Shown here piece after piece: positions 19,900 through 62,836 of a DNA stretch of 64,000 nucleotides (positions are counted from its first letter, which is position 1; each line of letters opens with the position of its first letter). Position numbers and translations under genes: made by a program. The notes beneath the pieces were generated by a model. The model was given only the letters and a program-made list of their open reading frames with translations. It was not told where the DNA came from and searched no databases. Source of the stretch: Psammoneis japonica. Its lineage: Eukaryota. The stretch is from positions 62,001-126,000 of the forward strand of contig QPGO01000058.1 of the NCBI GenBank assembly GCA_008632985.1. Reading direction: 5' to 3'.

Positions 19900-21365
19900 G
19901 GGCAACTTCGTTCGCGCGTGTGAAGAAAAGGCGTGGCGGGTCTTTGTCAACACTGTTTAGATGCTTTTTGAACACTGTGCTGCATTTTCAATCCAATTTT
20001 GCTCTCTTTCCAAGTCAACAACATTGGGGTGGAACCACTGCAGCCACTTCACTCCAAAAGATTCCTTTTGAACACAAATTGCTGCTGTTGCCCTCTGCAG
20101 GAAAATGCAAAGACACTGCGTCCTTTGCTTTCTTGGCGCTGTCTGACACCACACAACAACTCAGCCATTTCTGACTCTCAGCTTGGCATTTTGCTGGATT
20201 TAACTTGGTGCTCTTTTTTGCCATGTCACAACTTTTTTGGCTGCACCAGCCCAGTTGTGGACGTCACAGTGTTTGACAGCTGCAACTCAACATGCACAAA
20301 TCAGCACCAGCTTTTTTTGCCACAGGGTTGCAAAACAGCAGAAAGCACCTCACCATGGTGATTTGGTGATCACCCTTTTTCTTGATGGAATCACCATCAA
20401 GAGCCTCAGCAATCAACACCACATCATTTTTTCTTGCTGCCGGCCCAGCCATTGCCAGAATGGGGTGGGGGCATCATGGCATGTGACAGCCAGCTTCAGA
20501 TGCATGACTCAGCCCAGCATCAGTGTGAAATTCATCACAGGATTGTAACATCAGAAACAACATCACCATGGTGGTTTGATGGTCACCTTTTTCTCAACAG
20601 GAGCAGCCACAACATTCAACAGCATGCCACATCTTGTGTGATTTTGTGTGTGGAAGAATTGATGTGTTTGAGTGCAACAAACTTGCTCTGTGTTCATGTG
20701 GTCAAATCAGCTGGCAAAATGTCGAACACTTTAGAGCACAGAAAAGCATGAGCACATGTCACAAATTGTGCACTGTCTGCACATGTTGGCATCGTGGTGA
20801 GTGGGTGTTGTTGATGCTGGGATGTGCACTGTGCTTGCAGCCCACCGTTGTCATTGTGTTTTGACAAGTCATGGAAAATTTAAATGACCAACCATTTGTG
20901 ATTGTGAGTTGGTCAATGTGCACAGGCTTGTGAAATCTTGCCTGCAGAATCTCTGCACATGTTCCTGTGAGAAGGGCTCAATCTCATTGAGAAACGCCAA
21001 ACCAGCTCAAGAGTGCTGCTGCTTCGCTGGCTGGCTGGGTGGGTGGGGGCTGACCAGCACTTCCAGCACAGCACTGGGTTGGCACCCAGTGGCAACAGCA
21101 CATGCATCTGGCGCAAAGTGCAAAGCACTTCACACTTTCTTTGAACTTCACTTCAGCCCAGGCTTGTCAATCACAGAAACCCAATTTTGAAGTCTGGCAG
21201 TCGAGTGGGTGTGTGGTGTTCTCTCCAACAAAATCCACCAACACACATTGCTGTCTCTCCCAACCAAATGTTGTTCTTGAAGCTTGTTGCAAACTGCCAT
21301 CAGCTCAGCCTCAACAAGGCACAGCATTGTGATGATTGCCCAGCACGTGTGCAGCATGCGACTGT
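19900..21365. other. TpA/CpG-depleted hypermutated block (degenerate repeat or gene relic, family not identifiable)
   Basis: Only 5 TpA counted by eye in 19921-21360, 4 of them TTAG/TTAA. Abrupt return to TA-rich sequence at ~21366. Confidence 0.85.
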
Positions 21366-22149
21366 TATATGCATATTCATAATTATATATTATTTATATG
21401 TCAATCGTACCACAGTCGTGGATACGTACAAAGGACAGAACGATCACACAGAGTTGATCGGATGTCGAAAATTGCAAATACGATCGATTGACGATGTTGA
21501 CATCTTACGTGTCAATAGCAATCGTATCCGGACAATCTGTTGTCACGAATATATTCTCCGAAAGGCCTTTTGTCTGTAGAAGCAGTACAGAAGCTTTAGG
21601 CCATTGAGAACTCGTTCGGAGAAACCAAAAATCACAGAGCAAAATTTAATCTCATAATTTTCACTTTTCATGCTTGATTCTACTTTCGTTTATACTCGTT
21701 CTTCGAGCATAGTGCTCGTGTCCTTGAACCTTGAACTGGCTTTTTGTGACTCCCACAATTCCCACCACGACCAAACTGTTTTGCCAGTGCACCAACAACT
21801 GCTGCAGGTGCGCAGCACACTTGTCCACTGCTGTCAGTGCTCTGCTGCCAGCAGAGAGCAGCTCTCTACTTTCTGCTCTCTGCTCCAGCCAGACTTAGAG
21901 AGCTGCTCTCTCTCTCTCTCTCTCTGCTCTGCTGAAGCTAGCAGCAGTGGCTGGCTGCCCTGGCTGCTCTAGAGTTGGAGCCCGGTAGAGTGGCAGGGCC
22001 CTGGCAGAGAGTGGCAGTGAGGAGTCTACATGAAGAGAGAAGCACGACTGAAAACTTCTGAAAATTCACGCGTCCTTGACAAAGCAAGAGAAGCACTGCA
22101 AACAAAAGGTCTGTGTTTCTTTTCGTTCTCTAGAGTCGCACCCACCCAC

Positions 22150-22212
22150 TCTCTCTCTCTCTCTCACACACACACACAAGAGAGAGAGAGAGAGAGAGAG
22201 AGAAAGAAAGAG
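22150..22212. repeat. Compound microsatellite (CT)n(CA)n(AG)n
   Basis: ctctctctctctctcacacacacacaagagagagagagagagagagag read directly. Confidence 0.9.
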
Positions 22213-22270
22213 AAACAGTTTGCATCAAGGCAAACAGCAAGACTTGTCTTCTGTGGCTCAAAAAAAAGCA

Positions 22271-23233
22271 ATGTTGCAAAGGATGTTGAATGCCTGCACA
22301 GATGCAAGATGCAAGGCATGCAATTTTCTCCTCTTTCTGCTCATTCTCATCTTTGCCATGATGGCTGCTTGCTTGATTGTTGGTTTCATGGGGAGTGTCA
22401 CACTTCTGTTTGGTGGCCCCTTTACTTTCTGCTGTGCACTGGTGTTTTCTGGGGACAGAAGGAAGCCAGTGCAAGAGCACATGGAAAAGGGAATGCATGT
22501 GTCAGGTGTTGTTGAGCGCCAGTGGACAGAAAGGGTGGACTGTGATTCTCCACTTGTTGAGAAGATGATTGCTGGTTGTGATGGCCCGGACGGCCATCGA
22601 CATCAAATGAAAATGAAGCTGGACCAAAAGACCAAAATGTCCATTCGTGGTGGCACAATTCCCATCATGGTTCTACCAGATTGTCCAGCATCAGGCTGCC
22701 CAAGATCCCTGATTGATCCTGACATGTTTTGGTTGTCAGTCTTGGGGTGATGTTTGGAGTTTCTGTGTGGTTGCACAATCACCGGATTTGGTGTGACGAT
22801 GCTTTTCCTTTTAATCAACATTGGCATTGAACACTTGACATTAACTTGGACTTTGGTTGTGGCATCCTTGGAACTGGCATTGTGTTTGGCATTAACTGCA
22901 TTAACCCTCGTGGTGTGTCGTCCTGTCAATTGCATTGAACTTCTTCAGTTCAGCAGAAGAATGGATGGGGAAGCCGTTTCTCTTCTGGAAATTCTGGAAC
23001 CAATTGATCCAATCACATACATCTTGACATTGACCGCGCAATTTTACATAGCAGGCAAGGAGACAAGAAGCAATGACTCGCATGAAACACATGAAAATGC
23101 TGAACACAGTAGCGTAGCTGGAGGGCCTCACGACTGCCATACGGAAGCTGAGGATTCGCTCTCCCAGGATAGTGTTGAAACGATGGAAACAATTTCCGCG
23201 CAGCAAGAGTCCACAGGCCATGATGAAATATAG
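22271..23233 (+). pseudogene. Degenerate multi-TM membrane protein gene
   Basis: ORFs 22076-22750 and 22754-23233 are in the same frame, separated by TGA at 22748-22750. Several hydrophobic segments. The 5' part has no Tyr and is TpA-depleted, while the 3' ~200 bp has normal composition. Confidence 0.55.
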
Positions 23234-27099: not shown

Positions 27100-29637
27100 A
27101 GCCTACCACAACGGTCATGTTTTTGTTCGCAACGACGAAACGTTGGGAGGCATCACTAAAATCAGGAGTGGTCTCATGTGCTGTTCCATCACATGATTGG
27201 CCTGCCTGCCTGCTGTCGGTGGTGTCCTGCCGGCAGTTCGAGGGTCGGAGGGAAGAGGACTTGTACGTAAATCTCCTCTCCAGAGGCACTTCTAGAGCTG
27301 CACAGCATGTTGTTGCACCTCCAAGCCCAATGCTTTGCCCTGGATTCTGAGCACATCAGAGAACACTGTTCAGATTTTCCAGCAGCTCCCCTTCCAAAAG
27401 CATGACAGAAAGGAGATTGTGCATGGACTGGAAAGTCCTTTCCATGCCTTTCACAACAATGGGGGTTTCTCGTTGCAATCCGCACAGTGCTTCATTGCAT
27501 GGTTGCTCCTCAGTCTTCCCAGATGAACCCTGATCTTGAAGAGTGCAAGCCAAGTTGCCCATTGAAACAAGAGGGTCAATGCGAGTGTCCCCCAGCAAGC
27601 TTGGGCATGATTGGATGAGCAGTTGGCAGAAGTGATTGGTGTCTTCACACATTGCCCCATGTCATGCAGGGGTGTTGTGCAGCCTTTGACTGGGTGTGGC
27701 AAGAAGCATGTCAGCCTCAGAGCTGTCACTGCTGTGACAGCCTTTGATTGCCTTGATGCAAAGCACGCACCAGCCCAGGCCAGCTTCTTCTGTTTTGCCT
27801 TCATCATGCAGGGTTGCAGCCAGATGCAAGTGCCCCATGTGGTGCAACAGCAACTCAGAGCTTGTGAGAAAGCTGTTTGCTCCACCAGAAAGATTGCTTC
27901 TAAAAACAAGTTGTCTCTTGTGGAAGATTTCAGATCCCATCCTGACAAGCCATGTCCACACAATGCAAAGGATGTGAGTGTTGACATGACGGACATCATG
28001 GCAGCCTCGCCTTTGTCCCCAAGTGTCTCACTCTGTGTGGAGAGGCACACATTTTTGGTTTTCTCAGGGCTGCACAATGTTGCCACCTTCTGTGTGCATC
28101 AGCTCAGGCAAGGGATCAACTGGCATTTTTAAAGCCTGATTTGGTGAGAGGAGATCCTCTTGGTCAACAACTGAACCATGCTCAGCTTCCATGAGCAGCA
28201 TCCCCAGCTTGGGCCAGCTTGTTGCCCTCCCCTTCTCCCTGTCCACCAAGGAGACTCAACATCAAGGTTGTGCATTTGATTTGATCAATCTGCTGTCAAA
28301 GGTCTTGTGGAAAGCCATCCTTGAGCTTCTTCATTCCTTCATCTTTCAGCTTCCCTTGGTCAGCACAGATGATGTCTGTCCATGAGTGTCGCCCTTTCCT
28401 CAAATTGCAGTGTGGCAATGTTTGCATTCAATGTCACACACACCAGTCCATCCACCTGTCCATCTGTTGGGGAGGTTGGAGGGAAGATTCGCAACTTCAA
28501 AAATTCAACAACAAAAACTTGCAACCATGAGAGTTGTGCAGTCATGATGCAACGAGCTTTGCTCTTTGAACACTGTCATTCTTTGTGGGGGTGCACCAAA
28601 CCCTCTGATGACACACATGGTTTGGTGCAGGGTGAACTGGACACAAACAACTAGAATGAAAGAAACAATGGAGAACGGCTTTGAAGTGCACAAAAAATTG
28701 TGATGAGATTCAGATTCAAACCAACAACATTCAGGGCTTTGCTTGCCCCATGCATCAATTGAAAGTGCCAAGGAACAAAGATGAAACACCACTGTTGTCT
28801 TTGACTTTGGGATCCACTCTTCTTCTTTGTCAGCAAGCAACTCTGTGGCTTTCCCATCAATCACAAGGCCCTTGCCAAAACCAGTGAGAATCTCCAACTG
28901 TTCATTCGACCCTTTTTCAAAGCATCCAAGAGCCAAGATCCAGATGACCAATGTGCATCAGACAAACATTGAAAGGTTGTGGAGGACTTTGTCAACAAAT
29001 GCCTTGTGGTGAACCCAAATGGCATTTCTTGTCCACACCCATTGAGAAGTGGGTGGTTTGGCTTGTTCATGCCTGTGTTGGCGGGCTGGCAGAGGAAGAA
29101 ATTTCTGTTTTTTCAAACTGGGTCTGCTGATGGAACCACCACCAAGCAATTTTGATGGTTCTCAAGCTTCTGACTGAGTCCATTGGCACCCTGACAACAA
29201 ACCAAAATGGTCTTTCATGTGTGATTTGAGTTGCTTCATGACAGAAGGTGCTGCGTTGTGTGCCTCTGCAACGATGCAGCCAGTGTTTCTGGCCATGTTC
29301 TCTGGCATGACATCCCAGGTGAAAGCAATCATTTCTTGATGCAGGAGTGAGTGACAAGCTTCTGAATGAGTTCATTGGTGCCCTGACAACCAATGAAAAG
29401 GTTTTTTCATTGGTGATTTGAGTTGCTTCCCAGAAAAAGGGGTGGCAGTGTGTGCTTCTGCAATGACACAGTGTTTCTGGCAGTGTTCTCTGGCATGCCC
29501 TCCCAGGTGAAAGGAACCACTTCTTGTTGCAGGAGTGAGTGAGAAGCTTCTGAGTGAGTCCATTGCTGCTCTGATGACAAATCAAAAGGGTTGTTTTGCA
29601 CTCAACAGCAGTGCTGCTTGGCTTTCATTGTGTCCTT
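27100..29637. mobile_element. Heavily hypermutated repeat relic, host of the Plavaka-like insertion
   Basis: TpA/CpG-depleted, and similar composition resumes at 37075-37270. The only hint of family is NVHQTNIERLWR (~28949-28985), weakly resembling the IS1595/Merlin H.N.IE..W motif. Confidence 0.4.
29165..29590. repeat. ~190-bp tandem repeat, about 2.3 copies
   Basis: Units begin aagcttctgaNtgagtYcattg at ~29165, ~29356 and ~29544, and share gtgatttgagttgcttc and tcccaggtgaaag. Confidence 0.8.
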
Positions 29638-31633
29638 CATCAGAGTGCACGACATCGTAATGTCTGCACACATGACAAAAATGTGTTGCCACATTGTAAA
29701 ATCTACTTGTCTGCACATGATGGTTTTTGTTATTTGGTTGATCATTGATCTCCTGCTGTTCTTCATGTTTGAACACAGATGCTTTTTAATTTTTGTGCTC
29801 AGCCTTTTTCACAACAACTGACGATCTTTAACGACAAGCCAAACATTGCAATTGCATGCAATGAAATTTTCATCATGCAAAGTGTGCACCAATCATTTGA
29901 TCAACAACTGTGCTCCAATTGGCCTGTTCGTCCACATCGTCCTCTTCATTCCATGTGTCTTGTCCGCTCTCTTGCAAGAATTTCAAACACACATGCCGCT
30001 GCCGCGTTGGATGTTTCCTCGTCACTCTTCCAAAAAAGCCACACTGCATTTCTTGCATTTGGGCGAACATCATCGAGAGGAAGAGGTCCCTCGAAATGCA
30101 GAATCGCATCGCTGCTCCCCTCTTGACGTCGTGTTGTCTGCTTCTTTTTCTCTTTCTTCATTTTTCCCATCCTGTTTTTCTCTTCCTTCTTCGTCTTGGC
30201 GCCACCTGTTTTCACCGTCTCCGGTGTCTTTCCATCCGAATCCTTCTTTTTCATTGATCCTGTTGCCGTCGCCTTCATCGTGTGTTGCTTTGTTTTGGAT
30301 CCATGTTTCTGACTTCTCTCCATGCCATCCCCATTTCCGAATGTTTCTTTGTGATTGTTCGCATGCGTCACTTGAAGGCACCCACGTGTTCTTCATGCAC
30401 CTTGACGCGTGTGTAGAAATCCATGTTGTTTTCCAGTGCATGAACCCTTTCTCCTGATGCTGTTCCGCACAACATTTTCTTCCATCAATTCTACACTCCG
30501 CATTGCCCTTTCCTGGTGCAATCTCACATGGGATTTCTCTGGGAGAAGTCACATGCGCGTCTGGTGGGTTTTTGTGTGTGAAACTCCAAATCCTGCCAGG
30601 CGCGCATGTGGCTTCTCCCATGCACCACTCTGGCATGTTTCCACAGAAACCAGAATTTTGTGACTGACGCACGACCAATCTGGTGAATGCAACGGCGGAC
30701 CCACGACCACAACAATCAGAGCATTAGAAGAAAACCATGTCAGATGAACTCCGTCTGTCCGCTGCTGAGGATTTTCGTTGCCGGATGATGGAGACAGTTG
30801 GTGGTTTTGTTCACGCTGATGCTGCTCGTTGTTCAGAGGAACAGAGAGCAAAGGATGCAAAGGCTGCTGTGTCAAGATCGGCAGAAGCAATGGCAGAAGC
30901 CCGTTGTGCCATTGTGGCTGCAACGACCGCACTTGACAGTGCTTTGTTAAATCAAGCAACAACCACTCGCGAATTTAAGCACATCTGTGCGCAGTTGATT
31001 AAGTCATCGATCGAGACACACTGTTCAGACAATGACTGTGTTGTTGCAGTGGAAAATTGCAGCAAAGCGGAAATGAGTCTCCAACGCTTTCTTCACGGCA
31101 ACGCATTTGTGACGCAAAAGAATTGGGGCTCCCAATCTCCGTTGCGGGACATCAAAAATCAGAATTGAGGCTGCACATGCTGCACAGCTGTGACTCGACG
31201 TTGCTTCTGAGAAGCCTCAGGGCAAATTCTGACACAGACGCCAACAGAGCAGTGGAGAGGGAGCAATCTGCAATTGACAGCATCAACAAATCCATCCACT
31301 GCCGTGCCGTGCCACTCCTTCGAAGGCGACATCTAACACAGCCGCTGCGCATCCTGAAGGCTGCAATCACGTTGCTCCACGGGGCCCTTGACGATTTGAG
31401 AAGGAAAGACGTTGCCTTGCAGCGACAGTGGCAAGCTTTGTATGATCTGTGGCCAGGCACAGATCAAATGCGGGGAGGGACATGGACCGCGATCCGGGCT
31501 GTGGACGAAGAAGCCATGGCAAGAGAAAGGGTCCTGCAGTTGGCATTGCAAATCGAGGCACAATTGGTGGCTGTCAACCAGCCTGACCACAGCGCCGACT
31601 TTCAGCAGGCGATTGTGGCTGCCAGGGAACATT

Positions 31634-34600: not shown

Positions 34601-35028
34601 GTCATGTCCAACACTGCAGCAAAGGATTGACCACCACCAACATCCAAATCGTTCATTGCCAAAAGCTCAACTCCTTGCATGCTGTGGTTTGATGAAACAG
34701 AGGACATGTCGTCCATTCCGTGCGGTGCGTCATCCGGGGAGGGGAACAAGGGGCTGCTGCTCGGATCACTCGTTGAAGATCTTGGGAATCTGCTGCGAGT
34801 TGATTGCCTCGGATGGGATTTGTCATCATCAGAGGACAAAGAGGAAGAACTGCCGCTTTCTTTGGGTGGCCCCTCTGTTGTGGCAGGAATGTCGCTTTGA
34901 TCTGGGATTGGATCTTGGGTTTGCAACTCTTGTGCAACTGAGTGACACGTCGGTGAGTGTCTCCAATGGCAGGCCATTCGCAAAAAACTTTGGCCACAAC
35001 CGGGACAGAGAAGAGGGTTTCCGTCCAT
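31634..35028 (-). pseudogene. Plavaka-type transposase remnant
   Basis: N-terminal CPGCGQSF...HWRHSPTC, then GEPVIMT, WKPIGHLPDL, IIGDAKS, DMMHLFENG, GWKLQKLHETLHL, NFDAG.GE..LKDF.K and RAHPDFKSKGPWCDFAHV. Broken by stops and frameshifts. Confidence 0.75.
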
Positions 35029-35535
35029 TGTAAATCAGACAATGTTGACAGGGCCTTCATCAAGACTCATGCTCGTTGCCCTTGTCTTGTGGATGAGAAG
35101 GGAAAAAAGAACAACACACAAAAAATGCCGGGAAATTGGCAAACATTACATTGTCTTCCAGATTGGGATGATTCTTGTGGGTGTGACGTGTCTGCATTTT
35201 GATTGTTCATCTGGCATCCACAATGAACATTGCACTTTTTATTTGCTGTCAAAATGCAGGATGTCATCTCTGTTGAAACGCAATGACAGCCATGTCAAAA
35301 AGCAAGTTGGGCTGTTTGTTGTTGCACACAAATGTGTTTTCAAATTTCAATGTTGCTGACAACAATTTGTGCAATGTCACAGAGAAAAATGGAGTGCCTG
35401 GCTGTCTCAACACGACCCAAACGATGGCTGCACTGTCGAACAGTGCCACTCCTCTCATTGTTGCCGTGAAAAGATCAAGATGTCGTCTCCAGCACAACCG
35501 GCAAAAAGAGAAAGAAAAATGAGACTGTTGAGCCA

Positions 35536-44020: not shown

Positions 44021-44089
<69 letters not shown>

Positions 44090-45642: not shown

Positions 45643-46279
45643 AGCAACTGAAGAAGGCAGAAAGCTCTTGGGTGCATGCCCCTCAGCAAGAAATCTGCCA
45701 AGTGCTGCCAAATGACTTCATCCACACTTTTGAAATGTGGCAAATGGCAGTGTTCTTCTGACAAGCCATGCCATCAGCCCAAGTGACTGGCAAACAGACT
45801 TCTTGCAATGATGCTGACAATGCTGTCAACAACACAGGTGGTTGATTTGCCATTGACGGCACAAAACATGACAGCCTGACAGAACTTCCAATTTTGTCAT
45901 CAGAGCACGCAACATGGTGATCATCACACATCTTTTCATTGTGATTTTTGTTCCTTTCACAGACAATTTTTTTATGGTTTCAAACCTCATCAGTTGTGTG
46001 GCTGGCAATGACATGTCAACTGTGACAGATTAACATTTTTGTGCTGTGGGATCAGACCCCCCCTCCCTGTGAGAAAAAATGTTTCACCATGAAACAGGGA
46101 CACGTTTTCCCTGTGAGAGTGCCCACCCTCTATCCCTGCAAAACCTGTAAATTAAAATCATTTGCATTGCACCATGAACACTCCATTTTGTTGTTTACAT
46201 TTAAATTAAATGACGCCGATGGAGACAACACCCCAGAGTCTGCAGCAGTTGCAGCTCACTTTCTTCAAGTGCCACTGCT

Positions 46280-49693: not shown

Positions 49694-51903
49694 TCATGCA
49701 GAATTCTGCGGGCCCTTGCCATGCACTCGAGCATGAGCAAATGGGAGAGATCCATGGAAACCTGTTGCCGTTTCATCGCATGCTGCACATGTCCAATCAA
49801 TGAGAACAAACACCTCATCGTTCCTGTCAAAAACAACATTTTCAACTCGCACGTCAAGGTGAACAACATTTCGGGCATGAGCATGACTCAGTCCGGTTGC
49901 AATGTCCATCCACATGCTTTGTGCCACTTCCTTCTTTGGTTTCAAATTGACCTCCACAAGTGGAGTGCCTTTGCAAGAGATTGGGATGGCGGGAACGGCT
50001 GCAGCCGTCTGGCGGATTTCACAAACAAGCTTTCCCATGCCACAGAGATGAGAGATGTTGTTGCACTTCACTCCAGCATTCAACGCACGCAGTGCGCGCA
50101 TTTCCCATGTAATGTGTCGGGTCTCCCCAGCTCGAGATGCTTTGATGCACTGGTTTTCGTCATTGGAGACCCTGCACACAGTGCCATGAGCCCCGGCACT
50201 GACCACTGCTCCCGCAGACAGATTTTTGCCAAATTTTAAAGTCGGGGACAATGACCATGGATGGAAGGAAGCAGTTTGATTCTTTCATTTCTGATTGTCA
50301 AAAAAGGATGTGCCGAGACTTTCCTCTGATGCATGCAACAACTTCCAAAGTTGCTCCAACCCTTCCGGGACAGCAGACTTCAATGAACCTGGCGGAAAGA
50401 GCTTTTTCTCGAGATGTTCTCCAGACTTGTCGTTTGTCACCAACTTCTTGAAAATGTCTTGATCGACCAGTGGGAACATCTCTGCATGGCTTGTCTTCAC
50501 CTCCACACTGAGAGTCCCCATGTTGACAAGCTGGAGCCGCAATGCTTGCATGCAGACCGGTGTGAGGATTGGCCCCATTGCACTTCCGTCCACGCCTGCA
50601 TTCCCCAACTCAAAGGCAATGAGCAGCCATTTCGCACCATGCCCCACCTGCTGTTTCATGTTCTCCTCGTGCATGCTCTTTGCACTCCGTTGTTTGCTGG
50701 AGACATTCTTGACTTCCGCAGCCCCGGCCATTGTCTCCATTCGCAGCATTTTCGGTGCGCATTGGCATGACTTGCCAATGTCAAAGTCCAAAGAGCGCCC
50801 CATGCCAACAGCATGAGTTCGAGCAAATTTGCTTTCCCAGTGAATGTCTTCTCGTCCACTTGTGCCCATGTGCGACAACACTTGCATCAAGCTGCACATG
50901 AAGCCACCTCATCTGGGAAAACATGGACACCACATCACCTTCACTCTTCTCTTCATTTCCCCAGGACCAAATTGATTGGCAGTTTGTTGCATGCCAGAAA
51001 TGCATGACTCTTTGTCCTCAGCACTCCAGCTCCACTGCAATGGCTCCTTGAGCTCAGCTGCTCCAATCAAGTTGTTCCAAAACCTGGCGAAACGCTCTAA
51101 ATCCGTTCTCACATCCTCACACCCCACTGTCCACCAAGGGTTGACTGAGGGGCTGTTGACTGCATCAACGAACTTCTTCTCTTGCGTGCAAGGGCTGGGA
51201 ATCTTGACCCCATTCATCAATTCCTGAACTTGGCTCAAGTGAAACGATTCATCATCAGAGGTCACGCAACTCACTGACGAAAGACCGCTTGCCGTCTTCG
51301 TCTCGTTTTTGTTGGAAAACAGACACACAGATTCTTCATTTTGTTTCGCACCTCTTCCAGTCTTCCTGCTGACTCTTGCATTGGTTCTTCAATGCAACAA
51401 TTTAGACCAAATCCTGTGCTGCGGATGACGTTTTTTGCTTCATGACAAGACTCAGCATTGCTTTCCAACAAACACTTCAATGTGTCGTTCATTTCTGACC
51501 AGTCTGGCTCCAAGTCATGATTGCGCATGGTTTCATCTTGCGCAAGGCTGTTCACAAGCCCTGAAACCAGTTGCTTGCTGCTCTCGGGGCCACTGTTCGT
51601 GTCGCGCGACAGTTCATGGAGGACCTTTTTCGCATCTTTCACTTTTTCAAACCGCTCTTTCCAGCATTGGACAGTGCCTTTTGGAGCCTTGGGAAAGAGA
51701 GAAATGAACAAATCCAAAGCTTTGTCATCATCGCATGTGTGTTCATTCTCTGTAACTCCGTCGGCGGCGGTGGGCTTGGTCACGACAGCATGCTGACCTG
51801 CGCGATTGGTGCTCTCCCAAGCCCGTCGCTGTCTTTTCCCAATTCGAAAGGCAATTGAATCATCGTTGCTTTCGAGATCCCGTTTCGTGTCCGAAGTCGC
51901 CAT
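49694..51903 (-). pseudogene. Degenerate protein kinase-domain gene
   Basis: C-terminal kinase fold: AGAHGTVC (Gly loop), IKAS, LSHAHARNVVHLDVRVENVV, VLIDW and GSLPFA. Upstream fragments back to ATG 51903 are broken by stops and frameshifts. Confidence 0.75.
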
Positions 51904-52445
51904 GGCGTATGAGTTGTACGGTGTCGACCGACCTGGGTTGACGATGCTGATGGTGCAATGGGCTATCGTAGCCAGCGATGTTGATGTTTGATGTTGTTTG
52001 TTGTTTTTGCCTGTGTTCACTTCTGTTTTTTTTTTTTTTTAGTTTTCACCGTACCGTGGGGCGCTATTACCGTACAGTATGAAATCAGCAGTAGTCCCAT
52101 GTGCTTTCCAAGTTGAAGTTTGTTAGTAGATACCTAGTAGGCAGGCTAGTACCGTAGGCGAGGTTATGTTCAATTATGTTCTCTGCAAAAAAACTTATTA
52201 CCTTCCTCCTTGAGGTTTTAGACTAGATTCTAGATTTGTGATCTGCTGCAAGACAAGTCGGGAGGGAGTGGAGAGTGGTCGACAACACTGCATGTAGTCT
52301 AATCCCAAACTACGGTAGTCTGAAAACCACTCTTTATTTCAATTGTGTAACTGCATACGAGTACAAGTACTGTACCGTACGCTGTTGAGAGTGGAGTGGT
52401 GTTGCGTCTCTCAGCCACCGAATTCTCATTGCTACCCATCAACCA

Positions 52446-54068
52446 CTATCGCCGACGGATTCGCCTCGCAAGACGCTTTCCAATCCAATCTCGTTTACTA
52501 TGGGGCAAAGCCAATGAAGCATTACTTGTAGGCTCAACTTCATTGATAGGATCCTCAACTGTTTTCACCTCTTCTGGTTTTAAATCGACTACCATGACGC
52601 TAGAAGAGTCTGCATCCACGGTAGGTGCCAATTCTTGAGGCCTTCTGTTCGAGTACTTGCCTGACATGCGCCCTTCCAATTCTTCTTCTAATCCCTCCAC
52701 CATATTCGCTAGCACAATCACGACATTGTAAGCTCCCCTGCCTGAAGGTTGCCGCAATTCATTCACGATACCCAATGTAAGAGCTATACCGAAAACAATA
52801 AAGGAAAGATACCAGGATTGGACCTTTAGAATACCCAATCCACCAATAGTTTGCACACCAGCACCCAAAACGGGGAATGTACAGAGCACAACAGCAGCCA
52901 AACTATACAAAAGTATCATATGTATTGGAGGCAACTTCTTCTGCAAGGCACCCAATCTTCGGGCACGAGCTTGTCTCAGAGCTCGCACGGTTTTGTAAAT
53001 GATGCTTGGTTCTCCAACCGAGGTTAGAAACATGACGCGCTCAAAAGGATCGTCCACCGGACGAGCTGATAACAGCACAGCTGGTTCGGTTGCGGTTTGA
53101 AGCAAATCTTCACGGACGTAAACATCAATGCACTCCAAGATGGATTGATACATGGCCTTGCGTCCTTGACAAACCAGTGCAACTTGCTCCAGTAATGACT
53201 TGGCCACAGTCACCTCGTCAAAGAGTGCATAGTATATTTCTTCTTGTTGTTGATACATGAAATAATAAGTTTGTCCTTAACAAGTGAGAGATGGTGTTGA
53301 GTTAGTGACACAATAGAAGTAATAGTCAATAGCACTTCTACTTTGCATGGTGTAAAGGGATAGAAAACAGTGCTTCTTACCCACAAGAATGGAAAAGGTG
53401 AGTCCGCATGTTGTAAGAATGTTCTGAATATACTGCGAGTTGTCTTGGGCAATCACACCAAAGGCCTTATAGTCGTCAATCATTGCCGCCAGTGTAAGAG
53501 ACAAAGCTGGATAGACAAATGCCGCAGCGGCTCCAAAGAGTAAGGCGGGCATCCCGACACGAAGCAACGTGACAATCTGAACATAATTCTTCAATTCACG
53601 AGGATCGTCCTTGAAGTCGGCCGACACAAAGTTCTTAGCAGCTACTTCCCACACGGAAACACTCCCTCCCATATCAAGATTCTCATAAAGGCTTTCATGG
53701 TCTCTGACAGATGCAAGAAGAGAAGTCGCACCCGTGAGTCGGATGGGATATCTATGCAGGTGCGACGTAGTAGCACCGAAACAACTGAGTTTTGCGCCCA
53801 TACTATGCAGGGGTGATGACGATCTAGTAGTTGCTTGAGTGGGAAAAGAGAAACCCTTGTTTGCCATACAGGCCAAAATTATCATTGACATGAAGAATGT
53901 TGTGTATGAGCAACATGGAGGGCGGTTGCGTTTTCGCGTCATGTTGCTAATGTCGTCGGTAATCATCATCGTGGGTCGGTCAGAGAAGTGAAAAAGAGAT
54001 GGATGATGGATGCGGGTGACGGTTGATGGACAGGACAGAACCGAAGCCATTCTTTCAACAACGGCCAT
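52446..54068 (-). CDS. Integral membrane protein, possibly DUF4239-like and plastid-targeted; intron 53380-53276
   Basis: Splicing gives CGLTFSILVGQTYYFMYQQQEEIYYALFDEV. About four TM segments. The true start may be 53942 or later, ahead of a signal-peptide-like FFMSMIILACMANKGFSF. Confidence 0.75.
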
Positions 54069-54109
54069 GTCAAAGCAGTGGCTGTGCTCATGTCTTTGCT
54101 TGGTCTAGC

Positions 54110-54600
54110 TCAACCTGGAGTCGAGAATGACACAAGAGAAGCAAAAAAAAAACTTGCAGCCGACAGTGTGCCCTGTTGCCAAAAAAGAAAACTCACCAGC
54201 TTCCCCCCCCCCCCACCCAGCGCTTGCTTTTGAAGCACAGCAAACGACTGTCTTCTTCCAAAAAGCTCAGACATTGACCCCAATAACTGGCAGCAGTTGC
54301 TCCAAAAGGGTGCCAGCAACACCACAATGAATGCTGCTGTTGCCCCAGCTTGATTTGCCTCTCTGCACGAGCAAAACAGCACTCCAGCCTGTCGCTCTTG
54401 GGCTTTCCGAGAGCTGCCTCAAATGGATGATTTTTTTTGTCATCAAGGATTGTTCGCACATTTTGGATCTGTGGCCAACCTGGTCCTGCAAGCCAAGCCA
54501 CTGCGAAAAGGCAAGGAAAGCTGGAAGCCAAGCAACGCAAGCGAATGTGAGGGCGGAGATTTTGGATCTTGAGAAAGCACACCAAACTGTGACTGATCAG
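54110..54600. other. Short TpA-depleted island between divergent genes
   Basis: Only one TpA seen between 54110 and 54600. Confidence 0.6.
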
Positions 54601-54783
54601 TGCTACGTCATTGTATGAGACGATCTTATCGTGGGTTTTACACACGTAAGATTTATACCAGTGGCTACGCAAAGAGGCAGCTGCTTGGCATCTCGCTGAA
54701 AAAAACACAAGGTCTGTGTCATCGCAACATCAAAGCCGTCGTGGTCTCTTCTAAAGAACATCATCTCGAGTAGAACAGACATC

Positions 54784-56099: not shown

Positions 56100-57555
56100 G
56101 TTTATTCAAAGTACTTTGCACAATAACAGCAACGCAAAATGCCGTCAACAACAACAACGTGCCGCGAGCGGTCGAAGCGTGGAGAATGCCGCAGAAATTG
56201 CTGTTGTCTGTTGTGTACGTTTGTCGTTTAGATTTTCGTATGCGAAGATAGACTGCATGCTACTGAAACGCAAAATTTGCGAATCGCAAATTAATTTATA
56301 AAAACAAATAGCTCGAATTTTTTCGCGATGAAAGCACGTGCGAGGTCTCTGAGTGCTTCATTTTTCGCTTCAAATGAGCAAATGCTACTGTTTCGACAAC
56401 CGAAGGTCTGTAAGTGACATGAAATAACAAACCAATCAGATTATTATCATTATGAAGAGCTATATGACGTTTTGTTTGTGAGGAAAGGCGGTGTAATCAT
56501 CCAAAAAGGTCATTTTTTGTTGAAATCTTGCGATGCGTCGGCATGAGTCTGCACCTTGAATTGCACCAGAGGATGTTGGCCGCGTCGCAAAGACGATCTT
56601 GGAGGGTGACAAGGGTCGTTTCTCGACTCGCCGCGCGATGATTTCGATTGTGCGGGGATTCGGAATTTGTCGCAAATTTTGCGATGTCGCAAATTTTTCG
56701 ATTCGGTAGCATGGAATTTTTGGCGCGAAGTTTTAGTAACTTCCAAACTTGTTGTGCTCTTCGTCTTGTCTTCGTCGTAATCTTCCTTTCAGATGAAGAC
56801 CTACCGCATACATAGTGTTAATTAAGCACGGTTGACTTAGCTGCTTCGTTGCCGGACGCCGACTGGGTGCCAGGTGCACTTCCTTGGTGTGGCATGAACT
56901 AGTCTTCCGTAGTGCAGACAAGAGAAATCGATACAATCATTCACGATCCGCGGGCATGACATTACGGAACCTACAAAAAAGGCTCTTCAAAGACCACCTC
57001 GACAACTCAACCGAAGAGTGGACGATACTCGGTCTGTGATGAATCCAGCATCCAACTGAATATGGAGAGGTGGCATCGTCGTCTGAGTCGGAATATGCAT
57101 GCAGGAGGAAGAAAAACAAGCTACGACAACTGCATCAGAGCCGCGAGTAAGCGCTGCCTGCTCTCCTTGGTGTTCATAATGTCATCATGAAGTAAATTGC
57201 ATTGTCAAGATCGCACACGTTTTTGAACTCCATTTACGTAGTGTATGGAAACTCCAATGATATCCATGCTACGCTATTGTAGGTTGAGGTGTCGATTACA
57301 GTATTGGGGACTACTGGATTCAGCCTATAAATGTAGAGTGACGTACAAGACGAACCGGCAGAATCGACCGACCGATCTTTCTTAAGTTGAGGGAGTCAAA
57401 AAGCTTCAGAAGGCTGGTATGGGTGACCAGAGCTATGAGCGAAACCGTTTTAGCAGAACAATGCGATCAGGACGAAGAGGTTTTTTGTCGTGGAGTATTC
57501 ATTTACGAGAAGTGAGGTATACAGCCTAAATACAGATATCGAAATAGTCAAATTT

Positions 57556-58098
57556 CTACACCACACCCGTTCCCGACTGTTTCGTCAATTCCATATCTGT
57601 AGGATGCCCGTATCGTTCTTCGATTCTCTCCTGACGAGAATAGGCTGCGGAAACTCGCAAAGCAATGCCCAGTACGACGAAAATTGCAAGAATACCGCCT
57701 AGTATGACATGGACAATATACTTTTGGGCAATTTCCGTACATACAAGATCATCACACTGCGGGTGCGCCGCATCCCATTCACAGCGAACCCATTCCTCCA
57801 TCTCGTCAATGCAAGCTCCGCAAGATCCTTTGCAACGATTCATCGACCGGCAAAGTTCGTGTTCTAGAACCACGCACTCGCCCCTGGATTCCACATTGGA
57901 TTCAAGCTCCTTCAGAAGACAAGAAGTGCAATCCTCGCTTCCAGTGACACCAAAATCCGTCAACAGGCACGTCACAAGAGAATCCATGTTGGATTCGCAT
58001 GGATCATAATCCCACACTTGTTGCGCCGCTGAATCTCTCGTCCCAACGGCAAGCAACAGCGAGACGACTTGAACGACAGAGCAGACCGCAGGCTCCAT
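57556..58098 (-). CDS. Small type I membrane protein with Cys-rich ectodomain
   Basis: 180 aa: signal peptide, multiple Cys, single TM (IVHVILGGILAIFVVLGIAL), short tail. Degenerate duplicate at 61.0-62.7 kb. Confidence 0.75.
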   Translation of the reverse strand: MEPAVCSVVQVVSLLLAVGTRDSAAQQVWDYDPCESNMDSLVTCLLTDFGVTGSEDCTSCLLKELESNVESRGECVVLEHELCRSMNRCKGSCGACIDEMEEWVRCEWDAAHPQCDDLVCTEIAQKYIVHVILGGILAIFVVLGIALRVSAAYSRQERIEERYGHPTDMELTKQSGTGVV

Positions 58099-58248
58099 AG
58101 TTGTTCTGAGATACAGTCTTTTGCGAAGAGTGTTTATCGTGGAGAAGCAAGAGAGATGGAGATTTTAGTTCCCCCACGATCCATGACTCAAAATGAACGC
58201 GGTTGAATTTTTGTTCCTCCAAAAAAATCTTGTGTGGGCTATTGCTTG

Positions 58249-60126
58249 CTACCGGAGGACTCAACCGGTCCCGGCGTCCGTGACTGAAATTTCACCACGG
58301 TGAAGCACGAGAGTCGAATAATTCGATTGGACTCAACCGGTCCCGATTTTGCATTGAAAACGGCATGTTGTACTTTGATGCATCTCGCCATGGCATACAT
58401 CGTTGGGTCGATGTATCTTTCATGTGGGATCTTTTTCTATCGTTGTTATAAAGAGGTTGATGCATTGGTTTGGTTTCCTGGGGGGCTTTGGTGGCGACAC
58501 ACGGTACAAACGGTTGCGTGCCTCGACTCGTGACTCGATTGCTGCACGGTACGGGTGACATCTGAATGGTCGACAACGTTGCCGTGGTAAGTTCTTTCTG
58601 TGTTTTCTCATTTTATACCGTTTATCTACTCACTAAAGATGTTGTTTGTGCTTTGTTACAGCTTCATAGGAGGATATATCGTCTCGTACGGTCGATTATT
58701 GCATCTGCAATATTGGCATCTTTTTCACGTCGTCGTCATCACAAAAGCGCATCCGTTTGGGAGCCTTGTGCTTCATCCCACTCCACATCTTTTGGTACAT
58801 CTATTTTTACTATTTATTTGGACTTGTGACAAGCTTGATATGTTTTTGAAGGTCTTGGTCGGCTCGTAATCACAGCATGTCGTTTTTCGGCGATAACAAT
58901 TTCTTGAAAGTGCATGCCGTGGGAACAAAACGATGCGATGGAGTCTCGGGGATACTCACGACATTGGCATTTGTCAGACAGCCTTTCCATAGTCCAAAGA
59001 AGGTAACCCTGTGAGCATGTTGTGATTGATTGAGTTTTGGACTCGTTTTGACGAAACTTGCATACCTCACGAGCCTTTTTTGGTGCGTCTCGATCATGCG
59101 CACAGGTGTCTGGTCCTTTTTGACCCTTTCCACCTACCCTTCAACCGCATTATCATCATTATCTAAGACACAATATTGTCCACGTTATTTTGGGAGATCT
59201 TTGTGGCGTAACTACGACTCTAGGCTTTGCAATGGGTAAAATGGGAAGGTTGAGGCTTGTGTTGGCGGGTTCATCGCCTCCTCTTGAATGCGCGGATGCC
59301 ACGAACCGCTGATGTTACTTGGGGGCATAAAAATTAGTAAGGCGACTCAGCTCTACATTTAAAAGGTGCCCTAGTGAGTATACTGTGACATGTAACCCCA
59401 ATGGATTATTATTGTGTACGTTGTTCCACTCATATTTTCATTTTGCCTGTCATTTTCCAGTGTGACTGTCGTTGACCGTTAAAGCTTGCAGTGGCATTTC
59501 CAGGCCCATGTTCTACATGACAGATATCTTTTGATACTCTTTGCTCATATGGGGAAATCAGATCCTGGAGCACTCAGTTCCTAGTCGGGTGTAGAGAGGT
59601 ACAAGTGCAATGGATGAAATTTGGACCAGGGCACAGATGGAGTTGGGGCGAACGTGCTGTTTCTTCTCGCTGGTAGAGTTAGTTAGTGTGGGTGTGCGTG
59701 CGGATGGCCTCTCTATTTAGGGCTACTACTCTCTAGAGTGCTACAGTGCCACTCTAGAGTAGAACTTGGCGCAAAAGGTAAGAGATCAATTTTTTTGTGA
59801 TTTTCGACTCGTCGCGGCATCTTCGGCGTTGTCCGTTGACGACGATAAGCAATCCATTGAAATGACTTATAGACTTATAGCATTTTGTTGTTCTTTAGAG
59901 ATATGATTGTATAGCTTCTAGTATTCTAGCTTTCTTCAAGGGTAGGATTGTATCGCATGTCCTTCGGGAAGAAGTCGCTTTGCGTTATCATTGCGTTGTG
60001 GCGGCACTCTCAAACTCATCCATCGCGGCGGCTTGTGCGTAGGGCTACGTACTAATTCTAGCGAGCGTCCGTCAGTCAGCCGGCGGGACCGGTTGAGGCA
60101 GCGGGACCGGTTGAGTCCGCCGGTAG
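58249..60126. mobile_element. Non-autonomous TIR DNA element (1.88 kb) with 4-bp TSD CTTG
   Basis: The left end CTACCGGAGGACTCAACCGGTCCCG matches the reverse complement of the right end CTACCGGCGGACTCAACCGGTCCCG at 24 of 25 positions. CTTG at 58245-58248 and 60127-60130. Subterminal copies of the motif at 58329-58345 and 60083-60097. Absent from the duplicate site at ~62830. Confidence 0.85.
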
Positions 60127-60130
60127 CTTG

Positions 60131-60340
60131 AGAGTTGTTGCTGTTGTGTACGTTTGTCGTTTAGATTTTTGTTTTGGTCTCCATCCATCACTCGCGCACG
60201 TCAAAACCAAATTCGACAAAATCAACAACGTTGATAAAATCGAAAAATGACGCCAACCGCCGAGGCCGAGACCGCGACCATGGAGAGGTTTCCCACTGCA
60301 CTGGCCTTGACAGGTGTCGTGGAATTTACCTCCTTACACA
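60131..60340 (+). pseudogene. Truncated duplicate of the MFS transporter promoter and first codons
   Basis: Aligns to 62837-63145, e.g. accatggagaggtttcccactgcactggccttgacaggtgtcgtgga vs accatggagaagtttcttattgcactggccttgacgggtgtcgtgga. Confidence 0.8.
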
Positions 60341-60614
60341 TGAGCAAAACTGGTCAAGTTTCATACAAGGGATGAATGAATCTTTGAACAGGAGGATTGC
60401 ACCCAATCTTCTGGCTAGAATCACGTCCAGCGCCAGCCGCGCTCTTTGCGCTGAAGGCATCGGATGGCGTGTTCGGTGATCTGCCATTCAGACAGACAGT
60501 GTCTTCTTTCAGACGCTTGTTGTGCAGATGGATGAAAAGTTCAGCAATGAAAACATCCAAAACAGACCACCTTTAGAAACAATCTGTGGCAAATGGAAAC
60601 GGCCTTCAAAATTG

Positions 60615-62836
60615 CATCTCATGTTCGCCACATCACAAAGCAAATTGCATCGTCAAGATCGTGCACATTTTTGAATTCCATTTGCATGGTCCATGGAAAC
60701 TCCAATGCTGTCCATGCTGCGCCATTGCAGGTTGAGGCGTCAATCACAGCATTGGGGAACACTGGATTCAGCCCACATGCAGAGTCGCACGCAAGATGGA
60801 CCGGGAGATTCGACCTCCCAATCTTTCTTAAAAGTTGAGGGAATCAAAAAGCTTCAGAAGGATGGCATGGGTGACAAGACCTGCAAGCAAAACCACCCCA
60901 GCAGAACAATGCAATCAGGGCTGAGAGGTTTGTTGTGTCGCGGAGCATTTGTTTGCACAAAGTGAGGCACACAACACAAGTGCAGCTGTCGAGTTGGTGG
61001 TCAACAAGTTTCCACACCACACCCCTTCCTGGCTGTTTCTGCAATTCCACATCTGCATTTTGAGTGGGCACCCACATTGTTGTTGGATTTTTTCCTGATG
61101 CTTGCAGGCCACAGCACCCCTGATGCCTGCAGCAGGCTGCAGAAACTCAACAAGCGATGATGCCCAGCACAAAGAGACTTGCAAGAATGTCGCCCCTGGA
61201 ACAAAAGGGCCAAAATGCTTTTGTGCAATTTCCACACATGCAAGGTCATCACACTGCAGGTGTGCTGCATCCCACAAATGGTGGCAAACCCACTCCTCCA
61301 CATGTCTGTGTGCAAGTTCTGCAAGATCCTTTGCAGCGATCCATCAGCAGGCAAACTTTGTGTTCTAGAACCACACACCTGCACATGGATTCCAAATTGG
61401 ACTCAAGCTCCATCAGAAGACAAGAAGTGCAACCCTTGCTTCCAGTGACAGAGGGTGGATGGCTGGTTGGATTTAGCAAAATCACCTGACTTTGGCAAAT
61501 TGAGAATCCCAATGTCCGGGTTGCCTGGGGCGCGTTGGGCAGCCACCATCTCCTGGTTGCTTGAGGTTCACCCAGTGCATTGCATGCGAAGCTGCGCGAC
61601 ATCACGGCACATGATGTGGCATTTTGAAGTTGCACTGTGGCACATGATGTGGCATTTTGAAGTTGCATCTCATGCAACACTCAGAACAACAAAAAACACC
61701 GCATCTCCCACCGCACCATGGGACTTGATCATTTGTAGATTGATGGCCGCAATGTCGATCAAGATGAGAGTGCAGTCACACCACTGTAAAATGGTGCTTG
61801 TTTTGATGGTTGCGCTGGATTTCTTGGCACTGTTGACTGTCATGCCACATTTGGACATGCCAACAAGCAGTGTGTTTGCTGACTTTTTTCTGCAGGGCTC
61901 TCACGACCGCTGTGTCAACAAGTCTGCAATCACTGGGTTGATTTCTGCTGCAGATGCAATCATTGGTGTCCAAGGAAACACTGGCATCTAAGGAGTGCAC
62001 ACGCATGGATGGCATCATTTTGTTTCCACCAGTTTCCCATGACAGATGCAGAAAATGATGCTCTGATTTCCAATGTCGACAATGCATCGTGTGGGTTACA
62101 GAAAAGAAACAATGGAGTGATTTTTTTCAAAGAGAGAAGAAGAGCTGGTTTGTGCAGCAAACGCTGTCGTCTGTCATTGGACGCTGCAAACAATTGTTGG
62201 CACCTTGTTTGGAACATTTTTTGCTTCCCTGTCAAAGCAACAGCAGCAATCACAACACCTTGCTCATTTTTGCATCATGGTGTCAATGCAGCTTGGCTGT
62301 GTGATGCAGCACGTGGTGTGCTTTGTTGCGGGAGAGTGCGTGAAACCAAAAGTGCAACGGACGGGAGCTCCAAACCATCGGCAATCGGATCTGGAACCAG
62401 CTCGTCAAGCTCGTTCCAAATCCATGCTCAAATGGATCGGAGCGGCTGTCCTTCATTGCATCTGCACGTCATCCGCACAGCAGCTGATTTCACCACCAGT
62501 GGACACTCTAACTGGCCAACCACCTGACACCAAAATCGGTCAACAGGCATGTCACAAGAGAGCCCAAGTTGGACTCACATGGGTCATTGTCCCACAATTG
62601 TTGCACCACTGAATCTCTCATCCCCCAACAGTGAGACGACTTGAACAAGACAGAGAAGAGACTGCAGACTTCGCAGCTGTTCTGGGGTGCAATCTTTTTC
62701 GAGGAGGAGCGCTCATCTCATGAAGAAGCAAGAGAGATTGGAAGATGAAGAGTTTTCAGCAGTTGCCCCGTGATCATCCATGACTCAAAAGCGGTCACTG
62801 TGTTCCCGTTCCTCCATCCAAAAGCAATCTTGCTGT
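60615..62836 (-). pseudogene. Hypermutated duplicate of 57170-58240 (Cys-rich membrane protein gene and flanks)
   Basis: Collinear alignment by eye on both sides of the 61451-62524 insertion. Differences are dominated by TA>TG/CA and CG>TG/CA. Confidence 0.9.
61451..62524. mobile_element. ~1.07-kb insertion with imperfect TIRs and TGACA target duplication
   Basis: The intact copy reads ccagTGACAccaaaatc. Here TGACA flanks both ends (61446-61450, 62525-62529). Ends GGTGGATGGCTGGTTGGA vs reverse complement GGTGGTTGGCCAGTTAGA. Confidence 0.75.

Follow-up and report, generated by a model that had tools for sequence, protein, structure and literature searches.

The stretch of DNA analyzed here, referred to as the window, comprises 64,000 nucleotides of contig QPGO01000058.1 (positions 62,001 to 126,000 of the forward strand) of the genome assembly GCA_008632985.1, which is listed under Psammoneis japonica. 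It contains six blocks in which the dinucleotide TpA is almost absent and CpG is reduced, separated by segments of normal composition, and the subject of this work is the mutational process that these blocks appear to record. The blocks harbor a candidate DNA transposon, a duplicate (B') of a gene (B) that lies nearby in normal DNA, a frame-broken kinase-like gene and repeats (Table 1). An earlier reading of the letters of the window alone (the sequence-only reading) had claimed that every recognizable open reading frame (ORF) inside the blocks is a transposable element or a broken gene and that the adjacent genes have normal content. Both claims held: the recognizable block contents are of these kinds, and genes are present in the normal segments between the blocks, with spliced contigs of a sequencing run, X2, lying on them. 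X2 is listed as "DNA?"; since the stretches skipped by its contigs end in GT..AG or CT..AC, it behaves like spliced RNA. X2 has no contig on 44001-50003, 50671-52004, 54006-54672, and 60009-62676, i.e., on bins that are largely blocks, and it has a depth of 0.41 on 50004-50670, values that were not used as evidence.

The blocks were called by a two-state hidden Markov model (HMM) on the TA density across the window. They total 25,013 bp, corresponding to 39% of the window, in agreement with the coverage of about 40% estimated by the sequence-only reading, whose block positions are matched by the HMM coordinates to approximately 100-150 bp and whose TA counts, made by eye, were exact (5 in 19921-21360 and 20 in 42121-46040). 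The observed/expected ratio (O/E) of TpA is 0.39 window-wide and bimodal along the sequence, with 0.08 in the blocks, in which 142 TA remain, vs. 0.58 outside. The same comparison, which had been proposed as a check of the claim, gave a CpG O/E of 0.41 in the blocks vs. 0.97 outside, a TG O/E of 1.70 vs. 1.16 and a CA O/E of 1.71 vs. 1.16, while the GC content is 0.48 both in and out of the blocks. This signature is far beyond chance: the longest TA-free run seen in 200 first-order Markov simulations of the window was 487 bp, compared with 1,006 bp observed, and at most 4 TA-free runs of at least 300 bp occurred in any simulation, compared with 29 observed.

The borders had been described as sharp, which is true for TpA and less so for CpG. 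Summed over the 12 borders, 108 TA are found in the outer 200 bp vs. 9 in the inner 200 bp, and at 21365/21366 a TATAT-rich stretch directly abuts 484 TA-free bases; the corresponding CG counts are 118 and 81, and three borders keep 10-18 CG in their first inner 200 bp. One of the borders given as examples, 37280, had been misplaced and lies at approximately 37212-37240. At the edges 19791-19935, 51500-51907, and 60417-60630 TpA is gone and the CpG density is normal, i.e., the TpA-purged zone is slightly wider than the CpG-decayed zone.

Table 1. Blocks and further features of the window (position 1 is its first letter; aa, amino acids).
Feature	Position	Strand	Basis and remarks
Block 1	19791-21365		HMM; joint TA/CG-poor core approximately 19940-21365
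Block 2	22028-22811		HMM; start probably near 21721
Block 3	27294-37212		HMM; CpG-poor flanks 27294-29637 and 37075-37212 around 29638-37074
Block 4	42235-51907		HMM; mosaic of parts 4a-4d
Block 5	53961-54603		HMM; 643 bp
Block 6	60417-62835		HMM; decayed gene copy B' with 1,074-bp insertion
Candidate Plavaka/Kyakuja-Dileera-Zisupton (KDZ)-like DNA transposon	29638-37074	-	7.4 kb, fully TpA-purged
Transposase, C-terminal half, 636-aa open frame	31637-33544	-	homology; open but mutated
Upstream transposase frames	33716-34057 (Plavaka domain remnant), 34252-35034	-	within 33716-35034
Protein-kinase domain fragment of frame-broken gene	49697-50284	-	PF00069, E 4e-8
B, paralogue of normal composition	57183-58193	-	TA O/E 0.64, CpG O/E 1.07
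B', part 1	60631-61450	-	mutated paralogue of 57183-57949
Insertion splitting B'	61451-62524		1,074-bp gap in B/B' alignment
B', part 2	62525-62790	-	mutated paralogue of 57945-58193
a, unmutated partial duplicate of transporter gene 5' end	60131-60335	+	alignment to a'
a', 5' untranslated part and first codons of MFS transporter gene	62837-63139	+	starts at block 6 border

The depletion of CpG claimed by the sequence-only reading exists overall and is uneven, as the CpG O/E within the blocks falls into two classes of approximately 0.1 and 0.6. The core of block 1 contains 5 TA (O/E 0.05) with a CpG O/E of 0.16 and a TG+CA O/E of 1.99; its right border is sharp to a few bp, and at its left edge TA drops at 19791 and CpG is dense up to approximately 19935. 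Between blocks 1 and 2 lies a spacer of approximately 355 bp (21366-21720) with a TA O/E of 0.81 and a CpG O/E of 1.61, followed by the region 21721-22811 with 0.13 and 0.23, respectively. In block 4 the CpG-poor parts 4a (42235-46200, O/E 0.11) and 4c (48001-49200, O/E 0.10) alternate with the moderately CpG-depleted parts 4b (46201-48000, O/E 0.63) and 4d (49201-51907, O/E 0.61), with a TA O/E of 0.07-0.20 in all four parts. Block 5 resembles 44.8-45.8 kb of block 4 over short, transition-rich stretches, with two collinear matches in purine/pyrimidine space that score 63 each (top score of a shuffled query: 67), so that the likeness of the two blocks is only suggestive. The right border of block 6 follows a unit junction, lying 1-2 bp ahead of the duplicate a'.

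Compared with the normal segments, the blocks lost 858 TA and 784 CG (1,643 together) and gained 1,681 TG and CA. This near-exact balance indicates transitions from TA to TG or CA and from CG to TG or CA, and it also accounts for the unchanged GC content. GC-biased gene conversion was ruled out, as the effect is confined to TpA and leaves the GC content as it was, and so was codon selection, as non-coding DNA is struck too and tyrosine codons are hit throughout. The survival of TA depends on the flanking bases: ATAT is found 0 times with 77 expected, GTAC 2 times with 92 expected and CTAG 9 times with 42 expected, and the best survivor is TTAA with 29 found and 46.8 expected. In a per-strand rate model the relative rates for the base 3' of the A are 2.14 for T, 1.38 for C, 0.81 for G, and 0.21 for A, and this model is superior to a single rate (likelihood-ratio chi-square 118, three degrees of freedom), a specificity like that of an enzyme; the context dependence of CpG is weak (chi-square 18). 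TG equals CA in every large unit, e.g., 331 TG vs. 313 CA in the transposase coding part. No strand bias survived multiple testing; among 13 tests B' alone reached p=0.016, and B already has more CA than TG. The equality of TG and CA speaks for a process that acts on duplex DNA or affects the two strands to the same extent.

The purge of TpA is partly uncoupled from the loss of CpG. At 29751-30500 the CpG O/E is 0.9-1.0 while the TpA O/E is 0.06-0.07, and 51707-51907 contains 18 CG and 1 TA. As TpA loss is saturated in both CpG classes, it is the faster of the two processes.

The candidate transposon in block 3 is delimited by candidate terminal inverted repeats (29638-29660 and 37052-37074) of 23 nt that are 87% complementary; a pair of this kind is estimated to occur by chance about once per 10 kb of similarly biased sequence. 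From left to right, the flank, the element and the second flank have a CpG O/E of 0.10, 0.59, and 0.11 and a TA O/E of 0.02, 0.11, and 0.00, and the coincidence of the CpG steps with the inverted repeats suggests that a younger 7.4-kb element is nested in an older, more CpG-decayed stretch. At the ends of the element no clear target-site duplication was found, the flanks sharing only "TT". The 636-aa frame has 830 relatives at E<=1e-3 among 1.84 billion representatives, the best of which show 62% (E 3.8e-238) and 42% (E 2.4e-112) identity. The Plavaka transposase domain PF18759 is found in five of the seven scanned relatives, all five full-length (1,123-1,242 aa) and four above the cut-off; matches of the 636-aa frame to relatives are at E 2.4e-112 to 1.9e-86. 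The element is thus a candidate Plavaka-like DNA transposon: it resembles the Plavaka or KDZ (CACTA-like) elements in having a transposase homologous to PF18759 proteins and candidate terminal inverted repeats, and it differs in that its own PF18759 match (E 1.7e-4, 21.4 bits) is under the 26.3-bit Pfam cut-off, that a target-site duplication is not confirmed and that the copy is dead. Tyrosine makes up 0.3% of the 636-aa frame vs. 2.7-3.3% in relatives, while cysteine and histidine are raised. At the 18 aligned tyrosines of the closest relative the window encodes cysteine in 7, histidine in 6, tyrosine in 2, and other residues in 3 cases, which indicates codon changes from TAY to TGY or CAY (Y: C or T). 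The transposon copy is mutationally dead.

An alignment of the transposase with 12 relatives led to a control set of 53 related loci on metagenome contigs. A TpA O/E below 0.2 occurs in no 1-kb window of any of these loci, and their locus-wide TpA O/E ranges from 0.39 to 0.82. Several are strongly depleted of CpG (O/E down to 0.01), and loci with a CpG O/E of 0.01-0.05 hold TpA at 0.55-0.59. As the control loci are normal in TpA even when CpG-decayed, the loss of TpA cannot be put down to the element family or to a side effect of CpG decay, and it is specific to the host. Nine of these loci (L026, L029, L031, L033, L038, L040, L049, L050, and L053), with a CpG O/E of 0.01-0.21 and normal TpA, represent ordinary methylation-type decay in other hosts. 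In a separate observation, a 1,290-aa Plavaka-like transposase encoded on an ENA metagenome contig (P0262) contains one tyrosine (0.08%), compared to a median of 2.95% in 150 relatives; at 37 aligned tyrosines of its 41% identical relative P0255 it shows phenylalanine 12, histidine 10, cysteine 6, and tyrosine 1 times. This looks like an element that was TpA-purged too, in another organism, as judged from its protein.

The sequence-only reading had interpreted the blocks as a fossil of silenced chromatin. The part of this interpretation that concerns CpG stands, in that the CpG decay in the blocks would fit past cytosine methylation. It leaves the loss of TpA, the main feature, unexplained: relatives with nearly complete CpG decay keep their TpA, and in the window TpA is purged also where CpG is intact. 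To our knowledge, TpA loss is not an outcome of methylation or heterochromatin. Methylation-driven CpG decay alone was ruled out as a cause, because the TpA loss is larger and partly independent and the controls keep TpA. A different version of this idea is passive decay, in which silent chromatin would lack a repair pathway, such as transcription-coupled repair, for a TpA lesion or mispair, with no dedicated enzyme or targeting being involved. The blocks do contain dead elements, CpG decay does accompany the purge, and an enzyme is only postulated in the reading preferred below. Passive decay is nevertheless unlikely, since untranscribed-looking spacers keep TpA (21366-21720, see above, and windows within 51751-52500 with an O/E of 0.84-0.96), the borders change within tens of bp and CpG-decayed relatives elsewhere retain TpA. 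Furthermore, the tenfold dependence on the 3' neighbor and the near-complete loss at a background divergence of only approximately 15% imply a very large site-specific rate.

The direction of the mutations can be read from the pair B and B', which was found by self-comparison of the window and the copies of which are approximately 3 kb apart. B contains an ORF at 57556-58164 that encodes 202 aa, with a Cys-rich part in addition to a signal peptide and a transmembrane segment, and X2 contigs lie on it at 56681-57878. Over 825 bp, B and part 1 of B' show a four-letter identity of 73.6%, and in purine/pyrimidine space this rises to 90.7-91.6%. From 44 TA of B a single one is kept in B', while 23 became CA and 14 TG; from 57 CG 10 are kept, while 24 became CA and 13 TG. 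Transitions amount to 0.46 per base at TpA sites, 0.33 at CpG sites and 0.094 at other sites, and transversions to 0.057, 0.099, and 0.058, respectively. The transporter duplicates a and a' supply an internal age control. The ORF of the MFS transporter (62916-63902) matches PF07690 at E 2.1e-24, and a and a' differ by 19 transitions and 14 transversions in 203 aligned sites, i.e., 0.094 and 0.069. This divergence equals the rate at the other sites of B and B', so that the duplicates are of the same age and B' has an excess of changes only at TpA and CpG. With B' purged, B normal and a background divergence equal to that of a and a', the signature was acquired in place, after the duplication and in one copy only.

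Apart from B and B', no paralogy between blocks and normal segments was found by tblastx, and alignments of tandem repeats within the blocks yielded no information on CA/TG double differences. A contrast to B and B' is seen in the normal stretches 9688-10137 and 5238-5695, which are paralogous with a purine/pyrimidine identity of 77% (score 111; top score of a shuffled query: 67) and a four-letter identity of 59%, and in which transitions and transversions are mixed. A 38-bp motif occurs three times (56202-56239, 60136-60172, and 62842-62878) with 92-95% identity, and all three copies lie upstream of genes or gene remnants; the motif is possibly a promoter element that these share, or one end of a small mobile element.

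The pair also bears on a homology-triggered process as in fungal repeat-induced point mutation (RIP), where duplicated DNA is recognized by pairing and subsequently mutated. In its favor, B' is a duplicate, tandem repeats are found in blocks, and some block parts occur repeatedly in the source sample. The latter is seen in the public sequencing run X1, for which contigs were built from 31-letter words (longest contig 315 kb, word depth approximately 60): X1 contigs pile up at 45.3-48.7, 49.3-50.0, and 61.3-62.7 kb, indicating that these block parts are repeated. The insertion in B' is repeated in the source sample, with a summed X1 word depth of approximately 490-500 vs. 40-75 in neighboring bins, word depth not being equal to copy number. 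Against such a process, only one of the two paralogues was mutated, B keeping 46 TA, both a and a' are unmutated, and the chemistry is reversed, as TpA is destroyed and not created. Moreover, other purged parts show an X1 depth like that of neighboring genes, so that several fully purged stretches appear single-copy-like. We regard a RIP-like process as distinctly improbable.

Four X1 contig pieces that lie wholly or mostly in blocks differ from the window in 16 of 7,263 letters, and this bears on a possible artefact at the level of the reads. If a long-read basecaller misread heavily modified bases, for example at TpA and CpG, one strand would yield TG and the other CA, which is the pattern observed. 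However, X1 contigs reproduce the block sequence with a precision that is hard to obtain from error-prone reads, B' has indels, the 1,074-bp insertion and an ordinary divergence equal to that of a and a', and the CpG differences between sub-blocks fit nested insertions of different ages, making an artefact very improbable. Among the X1 variants listed, all 15 in blocks are transitions, 13 of them between CG or TA and TG or CA, while 20 of 25 in normal segments are transitions; this evidence was graded as weak, because some rows stem from repeat copies.

Two further explanations were weighed. In the first, an RNA was hyper-edited by an ADAR- or ADAT-like enzyme, reverse transcribed and inserted, so that the blocks would have arrived pre-edited. 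The sharp borders would be compatible with this, as would the homology of B', which covers the ORF and approximately 370 bp downstream and thus roughly a transcript. U-A is the preferred context of known adenosine deaminases, which is also cited in the accessible part of a preprint on hypermutation in the rhizarian Bigelowiella natans (Mettrop et al., bioRxiv 10.64898/2026.01.13.699255). Yet a DNA transposon, which has no RNA intermediate, is the best-defined unit and carries candidate terminal inverted repeats, its older flanks are purged as well, TG equals CA without strand asymmetry, and the mutations reported in the accessible part of the B. natans preprint arose in resident DNA in culture (bioRxiv 10.64898/2026.01.13.699255); pre-edited RNA is therefore an even less probable source than misread bases. 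In the second, the blocks are foreign DNA with its own composition, i.e., a viral or horizontally acquired island, or result from selection against TA. Integrated viruses are indeed the targets in B. natans, as far as the preprint is accessible (bioRxiv 10.64898/2026.01.13.699255). B', however, descends from a resident gene, from which it departs almost solely at TpA and CpG, related transposons are TpA-normal, the GC content equals that of the host, and coding and non-coding DNA are affected alike with tyrosine codons being destroyed, which leaves foreign origin or selection with next to no probability. No viral genes were recognized among the 138 block ORFs that were scanned.

We consider it probable that the blocks record a specific, context-dependent A:T to G:C hypermutation at TpA, by which a transposon, repeats and dead gene copies were rewritten in place by the host. 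Two processes would be at work. The first would convert TpA to TpG or CpA by A:T to G:C transitions on both strands about equally and near to completion, with a preference for T-A-Y (R-T-A on the other strand). The second, slower process would convert CpG to TpG or CpA, most simply by deamination of methylated cytosine. Both would halt abruptly at the edges of the targeted unit and spare the neighboring genes and the intact paralogue. The TpA process would be enzymatic, with a DNA adenine deaminase of the ADAT2/TadA type or a thymine-modifying enzyme as candidates, and the enzyme may be recruited by whatever marks DNA as silent or foreign, in the same kind of genome defense as presumed for B. 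natans.

The host appears to be a bolidophyte-like ochrophyte (stramenopile), sister to diatoms, rather than a diatom proper, judging from the S28 peptidase gene at 2575-4188, the best named matches of which are Triparma verrucosa (76%), Tetraparma gracilis (61%), and a Thalassiosira transcript (60%). As a tentative extension, which we rate somewhat below even, a dedicated duplex-DNA editing defense might be common to stramenopiles and rhizarians and hence maybe ancestral to the stramenopile-alveolate-rhizarian (SAR) group, erasing TpA, preferentially in T-A-Y, from units marked as silent or foreign, independently of cytosine methylation.

Several points weigh against this interpretation or restrict it. 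The evidence comes from one 64-kb window, and the direction of mutation is read directly from a single paralogue pair in addition to the protein comparisons. The non-functional duplicate a adjoins block 6 and is unpurged (TA O/E 0.28, CpG O/E 1.32). At three of the 12 borders the TpA-poor zone reaches into CpG-normal DNA, so that a simple link to methylation fails. Some of the residual TA may be sites that were created anew, and the context preference would be blurred by them. X1 perhaps derives from the source sample of the window itself and in that case offers no independent proof against a read-level artefact, and the bolidophyte-like placement of the host rests on one protein.

Besides the units discussed so far, block 4 contains weak FG-GAP matches and tandem repeats. 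The kinase-like gene starts at approximately 51903, near the border of the block, and the minus-strand translation of 48891-52038 shows stops and frame drift; longer relatives of its kinase fragment were not found by search. Long open frames are over-represented in the blocks, which contain 181 of the 382 frames of at least 70 aa in 39% of the window. As TAA and TAG are nearly absent and the change of TA to TG or CA makes no stop, dead DNA stays open. In the normal segments, a gene at 14553-17890 (+) encodes at least seven helicase-associated (HA) domain repeats and a SAP domain, and 39808-42000 (+) contains a 730-aa frame with a bactofilin domain and weak immunoglobulin-like and ice-binding-like matches. 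The region 58194-60130 (+), of normal composition between B and a, shows GT..AG skips in X2 at 58585-58661, 59000-59104, and 59373-59461 and the highest summed depth in both runs (approximately 900-2,150), with no open frame longer than approximately 108 aa; Rfam gave no match here or anywhere else in the window. This unpurged region may represent a gene with short exons that is highly expressed and possibly multi-copy, or else a non-coding RNA.

In ascomycete fungi, RIP changes C to T at CpA, leads to an excess of TpA and a lowered GC content, creates stop codons and strikes both copies of a duplicate. The window resembles RIP in a dinucleotide-specific transition hypermutation that inactivates mobile or duplicated DNA, in sharply bounded blocks of odd composition and in the failure of homology searches unless the bias is allowed for. 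It differs in that TpA is depleted approximately sevenfold, the GC content stays at 0.48 and the TpA process makes no stops, i.e., the process is chemically opposite, and in that B was untouched while B' was purged and a and a' both stayed unmutated. Two practical consequences follow for such genomes: because long open frames persist in purged dead DNA, false gene calls by prediction programs are likely there, and homology in the blocks is hidden unless sequences are compared by purine/pyrimidine class. Methylation-driven CpG decay, as in vertebrates, plants and many protists, shares the change of CpG to TpG or CpA in elements. It spares TpA, as in all 53 controls, whereas in the window the loss of TpA is faster and occurs also where CpG is intact.

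The substrates of the deaminases ADAR, APOBEC, and ADAT2/TadA are RNA or single-stranded DNA, and the tracks that these enzymes leave are strand-asymmetric. The enzymes share with the process described here the outcome A to G and the preference for a 5' U or T, and ADAT2/TadA is the candidate family named by the B. natans authors in the accessible part of their account; the difference is that here resident double-stranded DNA carries symmetric tracks. If the interpretation is true, a natural enzyme that introduces A:T to G:C changes into duplex DNA would be technically interesting.

In the literature searched, the B. natans preprint was the only matching description found, with nothing comparable for diatoms, bolidophytes or stramenopiles, and the terms TpA, dinucleotide, methylation, and hypermutation are all absent from the Parmales genome paper (PMC10328945). 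According to the accessible part of the preprint, 231 of 302 new nuclear point mutations in mutation-accumulation lines of B. natans fell into two integrated viral regions, and 230 of these 231 were A>G or T>C, all reported on TpA, at a rate approximately 1000-fold over background and with bursts limited to some of the lines (Mettrop et al., bioRxiv 10.64898/2026.01.13.699255). The same text reports 124 TpA-poor, CpA+TpG-rich clusters in the genome and proposes an ADAT2-like DNA adenine deaminase (bioRxiv 10.64898/2026.01.13.699255). As judged from its sequence, the window matches this TpA hypermutation, otherwise described in 2026 for B. natans, as a further case in a different lineage and with different targets. 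Transitions at TpA (37 of the 44 TA of B became TG or CA) and bounded TpA-poor blocks are found here. In both organisms TpA is changed to TpG or CpA, nearly always by transitions, on both strands and confined to regions with the rest of the genome being normal; the long-term footprint is a depletion of TpA with a gain of CpA and TpG. Among the depleted genes of B. natans, transposase and reverse-transcriptase domains are overrepresented, as far as the preprint's accessible account goes, and a transposase lies in a block here too.

The differences concern, first, the host, which is a rhizarian there and would be a bolidophyte-like stramenopile here, and the targets, which in the accessible part of the preprint are giant-virus and virophage insertions and in the window a DNA transposon, repeats, a duplicate of a host gene and a kinase-like pseudogene. 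The depth differs as well, with a Rho of 0.45 given there for the viral region and near saturation (O/E 0.02-0.2) here. A marked loss of CpG and the T-A-Y preference are features of the window that do not appear in the accessible part of the preprint's account. For B. natans the accessible evidence consists of de novo mutations in culture, while the signature described here is known from the sequence alone. New over that part of the preprint are the paralogue pair with an internal age control, the flanking-base preference, the strand symmetry and the partial uncoupling from CpG, all of which constrain the enzyme. If a defense shared within SAR is true, the footprint would allow units silenced over the long term to be mapped in these algae from sequence alone. 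A further and saturated case, from a distant lineage near diatoms, would turn the process seen in B. natans from a curiosity into a candidate for a widespread genome defense.

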